Shown one piece after another: positions 1 to 5,041 of a stretch of 5,041 bases of DNA. How positions within the stretch are numbered: position 1 is the stretch's first letter; each line of letters starts with the position of its first letter. The stretch lies in the IMG/VR virus record IMGVR_UViG_3300023487_000049, positions 1 to 5,041 of that record; one strand, written 5' to 3'. This DNA comes from a virus. Taxonomy: Duplodnaviria; Heunggongvirae; Uroviricota; Caudoviricetes. The notes below the pieces were generated by a model. The model was not told where the DNA came from. It was given only the letters and a program-made list of their open reading frames with translations, and made no database searches. The position numbers and the translations under genes were made by a program.

Positions 1-2096
1 CGGGCATTGTCTCCTTGCTGTTGCTGGAACTGTCCGAGCAGTTTCAGAGCCTCGCGGATATCAGATTTCTGCTGGCTATCGGCAGATGCGAGGATTTTCA
101 CAACATTTGCCGCTGCAACCTGAGCATCAGTCTGTGCCTGGAATGCTTTAACCTGAATGGCTGCCTGTTCGTTCTGCGCTTTCTGCAATTCAGCCTGACC
201 AGCAAGAAGCTGACCTTGCGCAGCAACCATAGCCGGATCCGGCTGACTGGCCTGTTGTTGTTTCGCCTGCTCAACCATCTGCTGTTCTTCTGGTGTTCTC
301 GGCTTAATAACGCCAGACAGAAGCAACTGATTGCGGTTGTATTCTTTAAGGTCGTCCATCCCTTCGCCGTCCATATTGTCGAGAATCATCGACGATACAA
401 GGTCATGCTTCGGCGTTCCTGGCGGGATAAGTGCCAGCATGGAAAGCAACGACTTAACCGTTGCATCACGGCGAGTAGCGAACGACTGACCGACATCGAC
501 AGTCACTTCATAGTTACCCTGCGAAAGGTCGTTAAGCGCGATAACCTTCCCTGTCTGACGGTCAACCACTTCACCAGTCATCAGCGCCACGTCATCGCTG
601 CCATCCTCATTAACGATGCGCATTGGCGTATCGCTGCCATAGACTTCACGAGCCATAGAAAGCCACACGACGCCAGCACGGCGCATGGATTTAGCCATGT
701 TGTCCATGTAGATATAGGACTGCGTGTCCATCCGGTTAAAGATGCTATCAACGGTATCGGTAGCGACGTTGCTCGGCATGTTCTCAAGCTGCGACGCACC
801 TGTAATTTGCTGAATAGCCGTTCCGGTGTACTGCAATAGCCCGGCAAGAGCAGGAGGCATTTGTGTCGGAGGTGTCCAGCCAGCAACCTGAGCCTCTGAA
901 ATGACCGTTCCGTTTTTGTCCTTCTTGCTGGTCATGGGAAGAACTGCAGGTCTTTTCTTATTCCTCTCTGCCCAGTGATTCATTAATGGACCGGGAATGA
1001 AATCAACATCCACGATAGGAATGCCATCACCGCCAGCCTGAGTAGCATTATCTGCAATCATGGAAACCATCAGGTTCTCAAGACGCTGTGCATCCATCGC
1101 TTTTGCTGCGTGGCCTTCGATTCGCTCCTGATTATCAACAAATGAACGACGCCCATATACCGGGATGAGAGGAATATGTTCGCCCGGAATACGCTTCGGT
1201 TCTTCCAGCCATTCAGCGCCAGACAGAAGACCGCAATAAACTCGGCGTTTCTTCACCGTTCGCTCGCCAATCAGTTCGAATGCACCATCGGTCAGCTCGT
1301 CGACAATATCTTTGATTTGCTCTTCATCATAGATTGCCGTTTCTCCGCTGACAGGGTTACGCCATGCTGTGAGCTTCACCTTCTCTATGCGGACTTCGTA
1401 GTAGCGTCCAACATAGATGGCATCTGGCGTTGACCAGTCATATTGAGTGCCAGTGTCATCACGAGAAAGGCTTGCCGCGATGGAATCAGGGTATTCAGCC
1501 TCGAACGCTTTAGGCGTCATGGAGAACATTTCCATAGCCCACATAGCATCAGAACGGTCATATTGCTTGCTGTCCTGATCGAAGAAGACGCATGTCGCTG
1601 GGTCGTAAACAGGAAGAAGGCTGATGCGTCGCTGCTCGTTACTCGGATCCATTTCATCTTCGTAATCGGCACACATGCGGAAACAACCGAATCCGCCCGT
1701 TACAGCATCATCAAATGCGTTATCACACGCTTCGCCACCGGATGTTTCCTGATAGTCAGCGCGGAATTTGCCGTTCATCTTTTCGGCTAACGCTTCCGAT
1801 GCCTTATCGTCCTTAGGCCTGAATTTAACGCTGATGCGATTCTGTCGATACTCGCCAATGATGCGATCACATTCACGGGCAATCTTATTCAGTTCAAAGC
1901 GCGGGTAATGCTCAAACCTGCCTTCATCAAATGAGTAACCAGCGTTTGTGCTGCCTTCCCACTGTGCGCCGGACACCCGGACGAAACGTTGAGCCTCAAT
2001 AATCTGCTCACGCATATCCTTCGTTGCTGACCAGGCATTATCAAAGTTGCACAGCACCTTGCGATGCCAGTCAGTCATCTTTCTATCATCAGCCAT
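1..2096 (-). CDS. Portal protein (P22 gene 1 family), N-terminal ~698 codons; C-terminus lies beyond the window start
   Basis: My own minus-strand translation is open with no stop from the ATG at 2096 (in-frame alternative ATG at 2099) down to position 1: [23 protein letters not shown] ... ALKLLGQFQQQQGDNA. Not in the ORF track because it runs off the window. GGAG sits 7 nt upstream of the 2096 ATG. Segments KKRRVY, GEHIPLIPVYG and the Q/A-rich C-terminal helical region (PRTPEEQQMVEQAKQQQ, AQGQLLAGQAELQKAQ) resemble the P22 portal as I recall it (RRRVY, GEHIPIVPV, PETPEEQQWLVEAQQ). Gene order terS-terL-portal supports the call. Confidence 0.85.
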   Translation of the reverse strand, partial: MADDRKMTDWHRKVLCNFDNAWSATKDMREQIIEAQRFVRVSGAQWEGSTNAGYSFDEGRFEHYPRFELNKIARECDRIIGEYRQNRISVKFRPKDDKASEALAEKMNGKFRADYQETSGGEACDNAFDDAVTGGFGCFRMCADYEDEMDPSNEQRRISLLPVYDPATCVFFDQDSKQYDRSDAMWAMEMFSMTPKAFEAEYPDSIAASLSRDDTGTQYDWSTPDAIYVGRYYEVRIEKVKLTAWRNPVSGETAIYDEEQIKDIVDELTDGAFELIGERTVKKRRVYCGLLSGAEWLEEPKRIPGEHIPLIPVYGRRSFVDNQERIEGHAAKAMDAQRLENLMVSMIADNATQAGGDGIPIVDVDFIPGPLMNHWAERNKKRPAVLPMTSKKDKNGTVISEAQVAGWTPPTQMPPALAGLLQYTGTAIQQITGASQLENMPSNVATDTVDSIFNRMDTQSYIYMDNMAKSMRRAGVVWLSMAREVYGSDTPMRIVNEDGSDDVALMTGEVVDRQTGKVIALNDLSQGNYEVTVDVGQSFATRRDATVKSLLSMLALIPPGTPKHDLVSSMILDNMDGEGMDDLKEYNRNQLLLSGVIKPRTPEEQQMVEQAKQQQASQPDPAMVAAQGQLLAGQAELQKAQNEQAAIQVKAFQAQTDAQVAAANVVKILASADSQQKSDIREALKLLGQFQQQQGDNA

Positions 2097-3592
2097 CATC
2101 CAACTCCGCAAGGTATGTTGTAGCTTGAGTAATCAATCTCTTTAGGATCTTTGATGTCTCGCATCTGTATTGCAAAACGCCTCATCATGTAGCCATAGCG
2201 AACAGCAGAAAGGATGTCGTCATTTAGCTTGACGATCTTCCCGTTCTCATCGCGGTGATACAGACGAAACTCTTCAAAGAATGGCTCGCAGGTGTTAAAT
2301 ACCTTGAAACGACCGTCGAGCATCATGTCGCGTATCTCTGCTATCCCGGGTTCGACCGCATTACCTCCATCAGGCCATGTTGCATGATCTGGCAACATGT
2401 CGAACCCAGCTTCGGCGTATTGTTCCTTGAGCTGAGCGCCGCCTCCCTTTTCGTGCTGATGCCCGTCATGAGGCCAAGCCGTAGGGGTGTTTTTGCTCCA
2501 TGCTTTAACAGCACTCCATGCCTCTGTCGCCTTCTTCTGTTTGGCCTTCCAGACGCGAGAAAGATAAATCACGTCCTCGTCTTTATCCCACCAAAGCTGG
2601 ATATGTGCCTGTGGGTGATCCCATCCGAAGTCCATTGCATTGATGACGTAGAAGTGATCAGGACACTCGAACGGCTGACACTTAATCGTCTCTTCCGGTA
2701 TCTGGAAGATTCGACCGCTACCCATCGTAGGAATACCGCGAGCACGCGCCTCTCTCTCATGCTCAGGATAGGATGCGATGATTTGCTCTTTCTGCTCGTC
2801 GGTGTAGTGCTCAGCGTCATAGATGGTCATGTTGACCACTTTCTGCGACTTGCTGGGGTTCTTCAGGAACTTGGTAACAACGTCAGACATCCCCATCAGC
2901 GGGGTAAACGTCAGAATTGAGAATTGCCCGTATTTGTTGGTACGGGTAAGACCTTCGCCATAAATGCTGTATGGTGGCTCTTCGTCAAACCACACGCCGT
3001 GGATTGTGTCACCCTGCCAGCGAGCGCGGCCTTGCGAGTATGGCTTGAAGTAGCAGATTGAAATGCCATCTTCAACGCCATCAGCCGTGTGATGCTTAAC
3101 CAGAAGATGATCAACAAGGTTCGGAAAGAAAGGAGACTTCTTCCAGCTAATGATGTCCTCTTTCGGTATGGAACCGTAGCCCGGCTCGTCATTCTCTTCA
3201 ATACGACCGCACAGGATGCGTTGAGTCGTTTTGGTTACCGTCTCGTTTGTCTCGCCACCAATCCAGAAGACAACAGGCTCATAGAAACGCTTACCTTTCC
3301 ACTCCCCACCATATTTACCATCAGCCGGATAGCCTTTTGTTCCAGGATAACGCCCTGTAAGGTGAAACGCGACTTCAGCAGCACCAGTAAATGACTTACC
3401 AAGCTGGTTGCCAGCCATAAAACATCGCTCTGGATAGTCATGTCCGGCGTCGATGAACTCACGCTGTTTGCTGTATGGCGTAAATTCATATAGCAGGTGT
3501 GTGTTCCGGTAGTTCTCTTCTTCTTCGAGTAGCTCGAGCAATTCGATTTGCTCTTCGTCGCTCAGGTTATCAAGAATCGCGTCCAGTTCCAC
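2096..3592 (-). CDS. terL: Terminase large subunit (P22 gene 2 type), 498 aa, GTG start
   Basis: Track ORF 2096..3592 minus. N-terminus [27 protein letters not shown] matches what I recall of P22 gp2. P-loop/Walker A-like AGNQLGKS is encoded at 3392..3415 and a Walker B-like hydrophobic stretch ends in VWFDEE. Length is close to the 499 aa I recall for P22 TerL. GTG start at 3592 with AAGGAG about 10 nt upstream. Lies immediately downstream of terS and upstream of the portal. Confidence 0.93.
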
Positions 3593-4058
3593 GGCTGAAT
3601 AGCTCCTTGATACGAGAGCGTCGCTTATCGAGATCTCCCTTATCAGGTGTCACGTCTTCAACTTGCGACTGCTCTTTGAGGCCCAAATCACGGGCGATGA
3701 TGTTAGCGTTGAGAAGGTCAGCGGCTGCGCCAGAGAATTTCTGGTCGTAGATGACCTGTTCTGCTCGCGTAACGACTTCAGATAAATCTTCTCGCAGGCG
3801 ATATGTGCGCCATGTTTCAAGCGTCACATCAATGAACAGAGTGAGTCCGGTAATGGTCATCGCTCGCATCTTGGCGATAGGCTCTTGTATCACTTCACCC
3901 TGATACGAGAATGCCTTCATCTCCCATAGCGGGTTAGCTTCTACCCACTCGAAGTATTCACAACAAGCAGCCCACAGCGCCTCGGGCGACTCGAATTTAG
4001 GATTTCGCCCATGACTACTGCGGGCCTCCCAAAATCGGTTGCCCTTTGGTGCTGCCAT
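3570..4058 (-). CDS. terS: Terminase small subunit (P22 gene 3 type), 162 aa
   Basis: Track ORF 3570..4064 ([11 protein letters not shown]...); I prefer the second in-frame ATG at 4058 ([38 protein letters not shown]...) because the GAG-containing purine stretch is only about 3 nt from the 4064 ATG but about 8 nt from the 4058 ATG, and 162 aa matches P22 gp3. The sequence matches P22 gp3 as I remember it. It contains the pac sequence and its 3' end overlaps the terL start by 23 nt in a different frame. Confidence 0.9.
3764..3791 (-). other. pac: pac site (headful packaging initiation site) embedded in terS
   Basis: The minus strand reads GAAGATTTATCTGAAGTCGTTACGCGAG (reverse complement of 3764..3791), encoding residues E90-A99 ([10 protein letters not shown]) of terS. 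This matches the ~22-bp P22 pac site in the middle of gene 3 as I recall it from the literature. Exact boundaries of the functional site are uncertain. Confidence 0.65.
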
Positions 4059-4093
4059 ATTCATCTCACTTAATTGTCATTTCAGGTTGAGCA

Positions 4094-4336
4094 TCATGCT
4101 CCGGTAGTGAACAGGTCTAACGCTTCCTTCGATTTACGCACCGCTTCGATAGTGCGGGTAGTGATATCTGAATTAGCGCCGCCTGACTGGAAGTGAATTT
4201 TGAATAGCTCAAGATTCAGCTCGTCAGTACCAATGAACTGAAATGCTTCCTCTGCAGCTGCGTTCTGGTTCATGACCAGTTTGTAAATCTCTAACTGGAA
4301 TTTCTGTTCTTCAGTCATGGGAATAATCTCTGCCAT
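4094..4336 (-). CDS. Hypothetical protein, 80 aa, immediately upstream of terS (position and length match P22 orf80)
   Basis: Track ORF 4094..4336 minus (MAEIIPMTEEQKFQLEIYKLV...). GGAG lies about 6 nt upstream of the ATG. Same orientation and tight spacing with terS, and the translation is not low-complexity. No recognisable domain by eye. Confidence 0.6.
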   Translation of the reverse strand: MAEIIPMTEEQKFQLEIYKLVMNQNAAAEEAFQFIGTDELNLELFKIHFQSGGANSDITTRTIEAVRKSKEALDLFTTGA

Positions 4337-4357
4337 TGTCGGCTCCGTTTATCCGTT

Positions 4358-4383
4358 AAAAGGGATATCAGTTAAGATATCCC
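4358..4383 (-). terminator. Weak terminator-like hairpin (8-bp stem GGGATATC, 6-nt loop) followed by TTTT on the minus strand, just upstream of the 80-aa ORF
   Basis: Plus strand 4362..4369 GGGATATC, loop 4370..4375, 4376..4383 GATATCCC, with AAAA at 4358..4361 (T-run on the transcribed minus strand). Stem is only 50% GC and the T-run is short, so function is doubtful. Confidence 0.25.
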
Positions 4384-4576
4384 GTGTAGGGTATAAGCCA
4401 TTGTCGAGACCACTCATTGAATGGCCTCTGCAATAACCGATGTCTTTCCATCAGTCCGCCACCACAAAGAATCTTTTTTGCCTTAAGGCAGGAGGTTCAT
4501 CTTTCAGTGGCTGCCAGTGTTATTTCCCCACTTTCTGGCTTGGGTTGTTTCGCTGTACTGCCGCAACTGGTGGTGC

Positions 4577-4596
4577 ACAGATTTAGTTAAATCTGT
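4577..4596. repeat. Perfect 9-bp inverted repeat with 2-bp spacer (ACAGATTTA-gt-TAAATCTGT), operator-like dyad in non-coding DNA
   Basis: Read directly from the sequence: 4577..4585 ACAGATTTA is the exact reverse complement of 4588..4596 TAAATCTGT. AT-rich, no flanking T-run on either strand, so more consistent with a dimeric protein-binding site than a terminator. Function unknown. Confidence 0.4.
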
Positions 4597-4613
4597 TCTC
4601 GCCTGAACTATCT

Positions 4614-4642
4614 TTTACATACCCGGATTGTGGGGATGTAAA
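4614..4642. repeat. Imperfect 11-bp stem / 7-nt loop inverted repeat (TTTACATACCC-ggattgt-GGGGATGTAAA)
   Basis: Read directly from the sequence: 10 of 11 positions pair (one A/G mismatch). No adjacent T-run. Lies in the same non-coding island as the 20-bp dyad. Function unknown. Confidence 0.35.
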
Positions 4643-4689
4643 TCACGGTTTCATTATCAAGCCCACCCGTAGATAGGCTTTGTAATGAC

Positions 4690-4878
4690 TTACCCCAGCT
4701 TTGCTCGCACCAGCGCATCTTTAGCTTCGAGCAGCTTGCGGAGACCTGCTGACTTTTCAGCACTGTCCGGCAGTGATTCATCCATCAGTGTCGCAAGGTC
4801 ACCGATTGGCTTACTTACTTCCTGCAGATGCGCAGGGAGGTGTTGATAAGCGAAATACTTCATGATTGGAGATGACAT
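4690..4878 (-). CDS. Hypothetical small protein, 62 aa, between the spanin gene and the packaging genes
   Basis: Track ORF 4690..4878 minus (MSSPIMKYFAYQHLPAHLQEVSKPIGDLATLMDESLPDSAEKSAGLRKLLEAKDALVRAKLG). GAGGGT Shine-Dalgarno about 8 nt upstream of the ATG. Same strand as the late operon. No transmembrane segment or known motif visible. Not recognised by me. Confidence 0.45.
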   Translation of the reverse strand: MSSPIMKYFAYQHLPAHLQEVSKPIGDLATLMDESLPDSAEKSAGLRKLLEAKDALVRAKLG

Positions 4879-4896
4879 TATTTACCCTCGGGTAGT

Positions 4897-4920
4897 AAAA
4901 AGCCTCGCTATTACGAGGCT
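4897..4920 (-). terminator. Rho-independent terminator-like hairpin between the Rz-like stop and the 62-aa ORF
   Basis: Minus strand reads AGCCTCG-taatag-CGAGGCT followed by TTTTT (plus strand AAAAA 4897..4901, stem 4901..4907 and 4914..4920, loop 4908..4913). Located 9 nt downstream of the Rz-like stop codon (4929..4931). Confidence 0.45.
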
Positions 4921-4928
4921 ATGATTGT

Positions 4929-5041
4929 TCATTTCAGGCACTGCGTGTTGATGTATTCCTGCAGCGCTCTCAGTGATGTTTGGTCGCTGATGATTCCGGA
5001 TCTGATACCGAGAACGTTTCGTCCAGCAACTGGAGAGAGTT
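4929..5041 (-). CDS. i-spanin (Rz-like) C-terminal fragment; gene start lies beyond the window end
   Basis: Minus-strand frame open from the window edge to the TGA at 4929..4931: ...SPVAGRNVLGIRSGIISDQTSLRALQEYINTQCLK*. The C-terminal QEYINTQC resembles the lambda Rz C-terminus (...QKYINEQCR) as I recall it, including the penultimate cysteine. The position, directly upstream of the packaging genes in the late operon, fits a lysis cassette. Confidence 0.5.
   Translation of the reverse strand, partial: LSPVAGRNVLGIRSGIISDQTSLRALQEYINTQCLK

Follow-up and report, generated by a model that had tools for sequence, protein, structure and literature searches.

What does a 62-codon open reading frame (ORF) do between the lysis and packaging genes of a P22-like prophage? 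The question is raised by a stretch of 5,041 nucleotides (nt) of tailed-virus DNA (Caudoviricetes; IMG/VR record IMGVR_UViG_3300023487_000049, positions 1 to 5,041; hereafter the window), which corresponds to the late part of a prophage of P22-like (Lederbergvirus) type, its genes reading along the minus strand. An earlier description made from the letters alone (the sequence-only reading) had singled out this ORF and left it without a family. Here we show that it is a genuine gene, far beyond a chance ORF, that it is under strong purifying selection, and that it is rare, mobile accessory cargo in a variable slot. Its product is probably a counter-defence accessory protein. With less assurance we favour a narrower interpretation, in which the protein would form homo-oligomers and act as a sponge for a nucleotide immune signal.

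The gene and its translation signal occupy the following positions.

4690..4878, minus strand: gene of 62 amino acids (aa), putative nucleotide-signal sponge, helical hairpin (ORF list, homologue searches, alignments, AlphaFold model, proportions of nonsynonymous and synonymous differences, pN/pS)
4885..4889, minus strand: Shine-Dalgarno sequence GAGGG (sequence; identical at eight prophage loci)

The ORF opens with ATG and runs for 62 codons, with the stop inside the span, and the program-made ORF list gives its protein as MSSPIMKYFAYQHLPAHLQEVSKPIGDLATLMDESLPDSAEKSAGLRKLLEAKDALVRAKLG. GAGGG stands 6 bases 5' of the ATG and recurs unchanged in eight independent prophage loci; the coordinates, strand and ribosome-binding site given by the sequence-only reading are all as it described them. 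A start at M1 is preferred over one at M6 because I5 is kept in at least 90% of aligned sequences.

How widely is this reading frame conserved? Relatives number 2201 in a 90%-clustered protein database, and phmmer, run exhaustively over 1.84 billion representatives at 50% clustering, returned 4169 related clusters, 774 of them with an expectation value (E) <1e-10. By tblastn against 50,697 phage genomes, 321 records were recovered, none at >90% identity; the window protein is matched at 80% identity in Vibrio phages, 74% in Acinetobacter phages, ~70% in Erwinia jumbo phages and ~55% in Brevibacterium and Gordonia phages, and at lower values in roseophages and Myxococcus phage Mx4. The family is found in phages of Proteobacteria, Actinobacteria and Myxococcus, T4-like and jumbo phages included. 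Compared with the Vibrio and Acinetobacter phage genes, synonymous differences are saturated (pS 0.77-0.82) and nonsynonymous differences amount to a pN of 0.17-0.24, and the gene is under strong purifying selection. A lack of homologues with a conserved frame, which the sequence-only reading had regarded as fatal to its proposal, is clearly not what these 4169 clusters and this pN describe.

The family is named by no database entry, structure or paper that we found. PHROGs lists it under families 1761 and 5120, neither with an assigned function; Pfam, NCBIfam, PADLOC and the sequences of the PDB contain no match to the window protein, and literature searches on the PHROG numbers and on peptide motifs found no paper on this family. 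Its members may already sit inside the large "Acb2-like" sets gathered by HHpred (Hadary et al.). The inability of the sequence-only reading to place the protein in any family has therefore been superseded, both by the two PHROGs families and by the remote homology to short-form PF24729 proteins set out below.

The structure prediction that the sequence-only reading had proposed as a check gives a confident, soluble helical hairpin (AlphaFold, predicted local distance difference test (pLDDT) 96.6; helices 4-9, 16-35 and 40-61), with no signal peptide or membrane segment. An acidic middle and a basic helical C-terminus, both noted earlier from the letters, are correct. In family alignments F9, H13, L14, P15, S22, A29, E41, L46, R47, K48, L49, L50, E51, K53, D54, V57 and R58 are invariant or nearly so, G45-R58 forms a near-unbroken conserved block, GLRKLLEAKD(C/A)xVRA, and K23, R47, K48, K53 and R58 are the invariant basic residues. 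Residue A55 of the window protein is Cys in most family members (KD-C-FVRA versus KD-A-LVRA); Ala at this position marks the enterobacterial clade, the exception, and the Cys is therefore not essential. Among solved structures only generic helical hairpins match. The sole PDB match in profile searches, Gp22 in entry 8jaj (E 0.009), is the tail sheath of phage P1 and was judged a chance local match.

With which other domains does the family occur? Pfam domains were sought in the 150 best cluster representatives and then in a second set of 64 (~214 in total). Among the first 150 the family domain is fused to Sequestin (PF21825, alias crAss001_48) in three proteins, to a RyR domain (PF02026, RyDEP) in one, with one further case in the second set, and to an Acb2/Tad1 hairpin domain (PF24729) in one, P0265. 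Phage proteins with a RyR domain (RyDEP) degrade or sequester 2'/3' cyclic adenosine diphosphate ribose (2'/3'cADPR; PMC13232231), and Sequestin was itself discovered through its fusion to Tad2 and Acb4 (Tal et al., 10.1101/2025.07.12.664507). Two traits of the nucleotide-sponge class set out by Tal et al. (2025) recur here, in a short phage protein (the class spans <100-200 aa) of unknown function that is fused to known sponge families; a length of <100 aa and the occurrence of tandem copies are likewise sponge-like. A further trait of the class, homo-oligomers whose protomers enclose positively charged pockets, would be supported indirectly by the recurrent tandem copies and by the invariant basic residues K23, R47, K48, K53 and R58.

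Tandem copies, two domains in one protein, were found in 5 of the 150 representatives and in further members, one copy often being degenerate. The tandem protein P0244 is modelled as a compact unit (predicted template modelling score, pTM, 0.76), and such duplications would fit a domain that normally works as a dimer or a higher oligomer. The tandems P0322, P0421, P0427, P0437 and P0262 mostly have one copy that is without F-x-Y-x-H-L-P and retains the KLLEAKD helix; by its sequence, this loss suggests an asymmetric pseudo-dimer that may have fewer functional sites.

The same scan turned up partners of other kinds. WDGH (PF25311), on which we found no literature, is fused as frequently as Sequestin (three of the 150: P0338, P0351 and P0361) and by the same fusion logic becomes a candidate anti-defence domain. 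Three more recurrent partners belong to no Pfam family (one in P0258, P0301 and P0369, one in P0255, P0350 and P0338, one in P0299 and P0381); of the three, one carries the motif GYLV.YPDGY.SWSPK..FEE.Y, one is a helical domain with CGASPELT, and one carries FLGWKLPEDFYPD...WPTGTNLF. P0258, P0299 and P0338 returned no match when queried against the PDB, and all three partners are possible additional anti-defence modules.

Is the domain also related by descent to a known sponge? Foldseek against BFVD placed the family's own members at ranks 1-6 and, at ranks 7-34, mostly proteins labelled "Acb2/Tad1 hairpin domain-containing". The best match outside the family is a 71-aa protein (E 0.037, probability 1.0, TM 0.70, 30% identity), and many PF24729 proteins fall in the range of E 0.037-1 and probability 0.8-1.0. 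The likeness is to short-form PF24729 proteins, of ~60-100 aa, in which an N-terminal aromatic motif precedes a two-helix hairpin and which, like the present family, are phage accessory genes in variable contexts. Aligned by hhalign with four short-form members, the family gave E 0.0018 over 50 columns; F9/Y11 were paired with the short-form motif N-R-F-x-Y-H-P, and L-P-D-x-x-E-K-x-x-G-L-R-K-L-L-E-A with P-x-G-R-E-K-A-T-A-[IL]-T-K-L-E-E. The common pattern can be written F-x-Y-(x)-H-(x)-P ... P-x-x-x-E-K-x-x-x-[LI]-x-K-L-x-E-A ... [VI]-x-R. A profile hidden Markov model (HMM) was built from actinophage short forms, namely gp9 of Arthrobacter phage Jasmine and gp23 and gp46 of the Gordonia phages Schomber and Anon, each confirmed as PF24729 at 1e-17 to 1e-22, together with the N-terminal domain of P0265. 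With this HMM, 220 single-domain family members reached a median of 14.6 bits and a maximum of 20.8 (15.1 for the window protein), against at most 5.7 bits for ~1000 shuffled and at most 1.8 bits for ~190 reversed decoys.

In the hhalign register, which is uncertain, Y11 falls on the Tyr of the short-form RFxY and K23 one position off a conserved Arg/Lys column. By a reading of PF24729 coordinates that Tyr is Y8 of T4 Vs.4, which aligns with Y11 of PaMx33 Acb2, a residue that stacks on the nucleobase and is needed for binding of cyclic GMP-AMP (cGAMP) (PMC10312549; PMC12393519). The differences are that the family's helix 1 is shorter (a 5-residue gap), that its helix 3 is two residues shorter by eye, and that the GLRKLLEAKD(C/A)xVRA block is its own. 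We conclude that the family and the short-form hairpin proteins are probably remote homologues, the family lying outside the Pfam boundary and bearing an invariant signature of its own. As the family domain and PF24729 stand side by side in P0265, the two are probably not redundant.

Other sponges were compared in turn. Canonical Acb2 (PaMx33 p26, T4 Vs.4; PDB 8H2J, 7UQ2) is a hexameric sponge for cyclic di- and trinucleotides, and some members bind 3'cADPR; it resembles the family in being a small helical phage protein encoded by mobile genes, in a similar ...RA motif at a helix end, and in an N-terminal Tyr with a conserved basic residue 12-15 positions further on (Y11/K26 in Acb2, Y11/K23 here). 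Identity with Acb2, which the Y11/K26 pattern had suggested, was rejected; phmmer against the PDB came back empty, and the hhalign probabilities are given below. Sequestin (for example T4 Y16O), a dimeric or tetrameric helical sponge for 3'cADPR, is likewise 60-80 aa long, all-helical and phage-borne, stand-alone or fused to sponges; its conserved residues R8/E12/Q47/R61 differ from those of the family. The PF21825 HMM does not match the window protein and in the fusion proteins maps to the other half, so that this identity too was discarded; the presence of both domains in one protein implies that they probably bind different ligands. Lockin was set aside as mostly beta-sheet and hexameric, and TadIV-1 (T4 Vs.3) as a 92-aa protein restricted to Straboviridae.

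What occupies the position of the gene in related prophages? The neighbouring elements are listed here from upstream to downstream.

4929..5041, minus strand: 3' end of Rz (i-spanin, PF03245) and end of embedded Rz1; upstream border of the cargo slot
4896..4920, minus strand: terminator-like hairpin AGCCTCGTAATAGCGAGGCT, then TTTTT, between the Rz stop and the ORF (hairpin scan; locus comparison)
4337..4689, minus strand: conserved non-coding stretch 3' of the ORF (comparison of prophage loci)
4094..4336, minus strand: DUF2560 gene, 80 aa, PHROG 571; downstream border of the slot in P22-like phages
3570-4064, minus strand: terS gp3 (PF16677)
2096-3592, minus strand: terL

The order on the minus strand is thus the end of Rz/Rz1, the 62-aa ORF, 353 nt of non-coding DNA, DUF2560, terS gp3, terL and portal. 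The Rz stop lies at 4929-4931 and the 62-aa gene begins 50 nt after Rz. The exact protein is recorded in 191 blocks of a public-assembly index, and the eight assembly places listed for it, lambdoid prophages of Enterobacteriaceae, served for comparison of the locus. The 50-nt spacing after Rz holds in all eight, which carry three kinds of packaging module (P22-like, HK97-like with HNH and Terminase_4, and Mu-F-like). In sister P22-like phages the Rz-to-DUF2560 slot is filled by genes that are unrelated in sequence and longer: in Sf6 by gene 66, of 126 aa, the namesake of PF13876 (E 3.6e-35), a family equated with the anti-CBASS (cyclic oligonucleotide-based antiphage signalling system) sponge Acb4 (Tal et al., 10.1101/2025.07.12.664507); in phage Kapi1 by the Tad2-like Kapi1_043 (PF11195, E 3.9e-26, 173 aa); and in another E. 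coli prophage by a gene of DUF2829, which like PF11195 denotes Tad2. The 62-aa gene itself occupies this slot in ~5 of 5426 complete E. coli genomes. It is, in short, rare and mobile accessory cargo in a variable slot, and the suggestion of the sequence-only reading that cargo is carried between lysis and packaging genes holds up well.

Two loci bring the family close to other sponge genes. At a related prophage locus (L020) a PF13876 gene lies immediately 3' of the 62-aa gene, a co-occurrence that speaks against plain redundancy with Acb4, and on a metagenomic phage contig (L029) a PF26761 (Acb5) gene lies 1.1 kilobases (kb) downstream of the family member P0146.

The fixed place 50 nt after Rz, on the late strand of all eight enterobacterial prophage places listed, could also be read as the mark of an accessory of the lysis or packaging module, acting on spanin or holin timing or regulating the terminase. 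Two distant members would agree, one directly after the holin gene in Brevibacterium phage AGM1 and one in Vibrio phage phiV208 before two unannotated genes taken to be terminase genes. The remaining contexts run the other way: the member of T4-like Acinetobacter phage ZZ1 stands between the topoisomerase and RnlB genes, in the early/replication region; Erwinia jumbo phages carry theirs, the C-terminal half of a 144-aa protein, next to the primase gene, also in that region; Acinetobacter Acba_4 and SU10-like contigs have it between capsid genes, and Gordonia phage Puppers after the tail genes. Most P22-like phages, moreover, are without the gene and have other cargo instead, and three different packaging modules accompany it among the enterobacterial prophages. 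We regard a role in lysis or packaging as highly improbable. As to whether homologues always sit between Rz and terS, as the sequence-only reading had wondered, this is so at the eight enterobacterial places and fails in other phages, where contexts vary.

Some further context was noted around distant members. In Erwinia phage pEa_SNUABM_32 the protein gp026 (L004 2752-3186) has an 80-aa N-terminal extension with a Walker-A-like GDVGSGKS, and one member, probably P0324, gave a weak nSTAND_NTPase5 match. On five metagenomic phage contigs (L033-L037, P0183) the family gene belongs to a small-gene block that has a gene of PNP_UDP_1, a nucleoside phosphorylase family, upstream of it and an endonuclease VII gene downstream; this phosphorylase could have a bearing on nucleotide/NAD metabolism in immune evasion.

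How is the gene expressed? The terminator-like hairpin at 4896-4920 is kept in all eight prophage loci compared, so that expression of the gene behind it would depend on Q-type antitermination or on a leaky terminator; late antitermination presumably reads through it. Scans of 4000-5041 found no Rfam match above threshold, no tRNA and, by consensus, no sigma-70-like promoter. These observations bear on the functions that the sequence-only reading had listed for the slot, namely lysogenic conversion, superinfection exclusion and host takeover. The Rz-to-terS slot is the classic moron position, and a factor expressed from the prophage for lysogenic conversion or superinfection exclusion would be at home there. 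Such a factor is scarcely credible here: the consensus scan shows no promoter-like site, the gene points the same way as the late operon and has the hairpin in front of it, strictly lytic phages (T4-like ZZ1 and the Erwinia jumbo phages among them) commonly carry family members, and the modelled protein is a soluble hairpin lacking signal peptide and membrane segment. From that list it is host takeover or counter-defence that is favoured, and the other two functions recede.

Taken together, the fusions, the content of the slot, the neighbours, the mobility, the sponge-like traits and the remote homology to PF24729 lead us to the sponge interpretation. In the mechanism we propose, translation of the late transcript, in an infected cell or an induced lysogen, would supply helix-loop-helix protomers of ~6.8 kDa that associate into dimers or larger homo-oligomers. 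Where the protomers meet, pockets would bind and sequester a nucleotide second messenger of the host, produced by a signalling defence such as Thoeris, CBASS or Pycsar, and the effector would never be activated. The likely pocket residues are those of the F9-x-Y11-x-H13-L14-P15 motif, K23, and R47/K48/K53/R58 of helix 3. We infer oligomerisation, ligand binding, ligand identity and the timing of expression alike.

A number of observations weigh against this proposal. The calculated isoelectric point (pI) is 6.7, with no net positive charge, and the placement in the late operon is unlike the early expression of many anti-defence genes. Known anti-signalling partners occur in only ~6 of the 214 representatives, the remaining fused regions being mostly unidentified, and among the neighbours in ten distant phages Pfam recognised nothing related to defence. 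As for homology, the PF24729 HMM (gathering threshold 27 bits) does not match the window protein even at E<=1, and matches the family domain in 0 of the 150 + 64 representatives, only the separate N-terminal domain of P0265 being hit; the same HMM gives 60-78 bits with the positive controls T4 Vs.4, JBD67, 7t3, Schomber, Anon and Jasmine. The hhalign probability of the short-form comparison is only 14.7%. For canonical Acb2 it is 0.2-0.3, whether the partner is T4 Vs.4 alone or an alignment of ten members (PaMx33, T4, JBD67, Vibrio, Aeromonas, Burkholderia, Salmonella 7t3, Zuri, B8b and MQM1), and an HMM of canonical Acb2 gives the family scores no higher than those of decoys.

A small counter-defence or host-takeover protein might instead work by direct binding of a host protein, be it a defence sensor, an effector or a housekeeping protein. 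The near-invariant 14-residue helix G45-R58 could bind a protein, many small phage inhibitors act in this way, single fusions with helix-turn-helix (HTH), RMF and zinc-ribbon domains exist among the 150 representatives, and the evidence of slot, mobility and neighbourhood fits any anti-defence function. What disfavours it is the spread of the family: since members from phages of Proteobacteria, Actinobacteria and Myxococcus share 45-55% identity, a protein target would need equal conservation across three phyla, and a small-molecule ligand explains this conservation naturally. The recurrent recognisable fusion partners of known function, furthermore, all act on nucleotide signals, and the remote homology is to a family of sponge hairpins. 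Direct binding of a host protein consequently seems to us rather unlikely, though much less so than a lysis, packaging or lysogeny function, and a sponge remains the interpretation we favour.

Which signal would such a sponge bind? The partners are mostly aimed at Thoeris-type adenosine diphosphate ribose (ADPR) signals, and if fusions combine complementary specificities, as argued by Tal et al., the domain may bind another signal. A bolder form of the sponge interpretation, which we put forward as doubtful, is that the family is a new and ancient branch of hairpin sponges with a ligand outside the signals sequestered by its frequent partners. Candidates would then be a cyclic pyrimidine of Pycsar, a cyclic oligoadenylate of type III CRISPR, His-ADPR, N7-cADPR, or the signal of an undescribed defence system, and the ~55% identity over 60 residues between proteobacterial and actinobacterial phages would reflect an invariant small-molecule target.

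Upstream of the gene, a mosaic junction lies within the last 40-50 nt of Rz. On the other side, the 353-nt stretch 4337-4689 is without a convincing ORF or Rfam match; seven further prophage loci have it almost unchanged, irrespective of the gene that follows (DUF2560, HNH or Terminase_2), and it matches HK620, Sf6 and APC_JM3.2 at 93-97% identity. The L020 locus diverges inside this stretch, three loci have a 58-nt deletion within it, and the insertion point of the Acb4-family gene in Sf6 and L020 falls inside its counterpart. Hairpins are found at 4577-4596, 4474-4495 and 4362-4383, and on the late strand TTTT comes directly after the last of them. Its role may be that of a landing pad for recombination, of a processing site or of a small RNA (sRNA).

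Further downstream, the DUF2560 gene directly precedes terS in P22-like phages and is highly conserved and uncharacterised. The terS and terL genes overlap by 23 nt (3570-3592). As listed, the terS ORF encodes 164 aa (MNMAAPKG...), and gene calls in related prophages give 162 aa, which makes the second Met (4058) the probable true start.

If the sponge interpretation is true, the family is among the largest still unnamed phage counter-defence families, with 4169 clusters at 50% identity and a spread over at least three bacterial phyla, and its fusion partners (WDGH and the three recurrent unnamed domains) would become candidate anti-defence families. At 62 aa, soluble and confidently predicted, the window protein makes binding screens and co-crystallisation straightforward, and should the ligand prove to be a new signal, the family could be used as bait for that signal and for the system behind it. 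On the sponge interpretation, P22-like and lambdoid prophages would have in their Rz-to-terS slot an exchangeable site for anti-defence cargo, and the family would help to explain how many phages escape signalling immunity.
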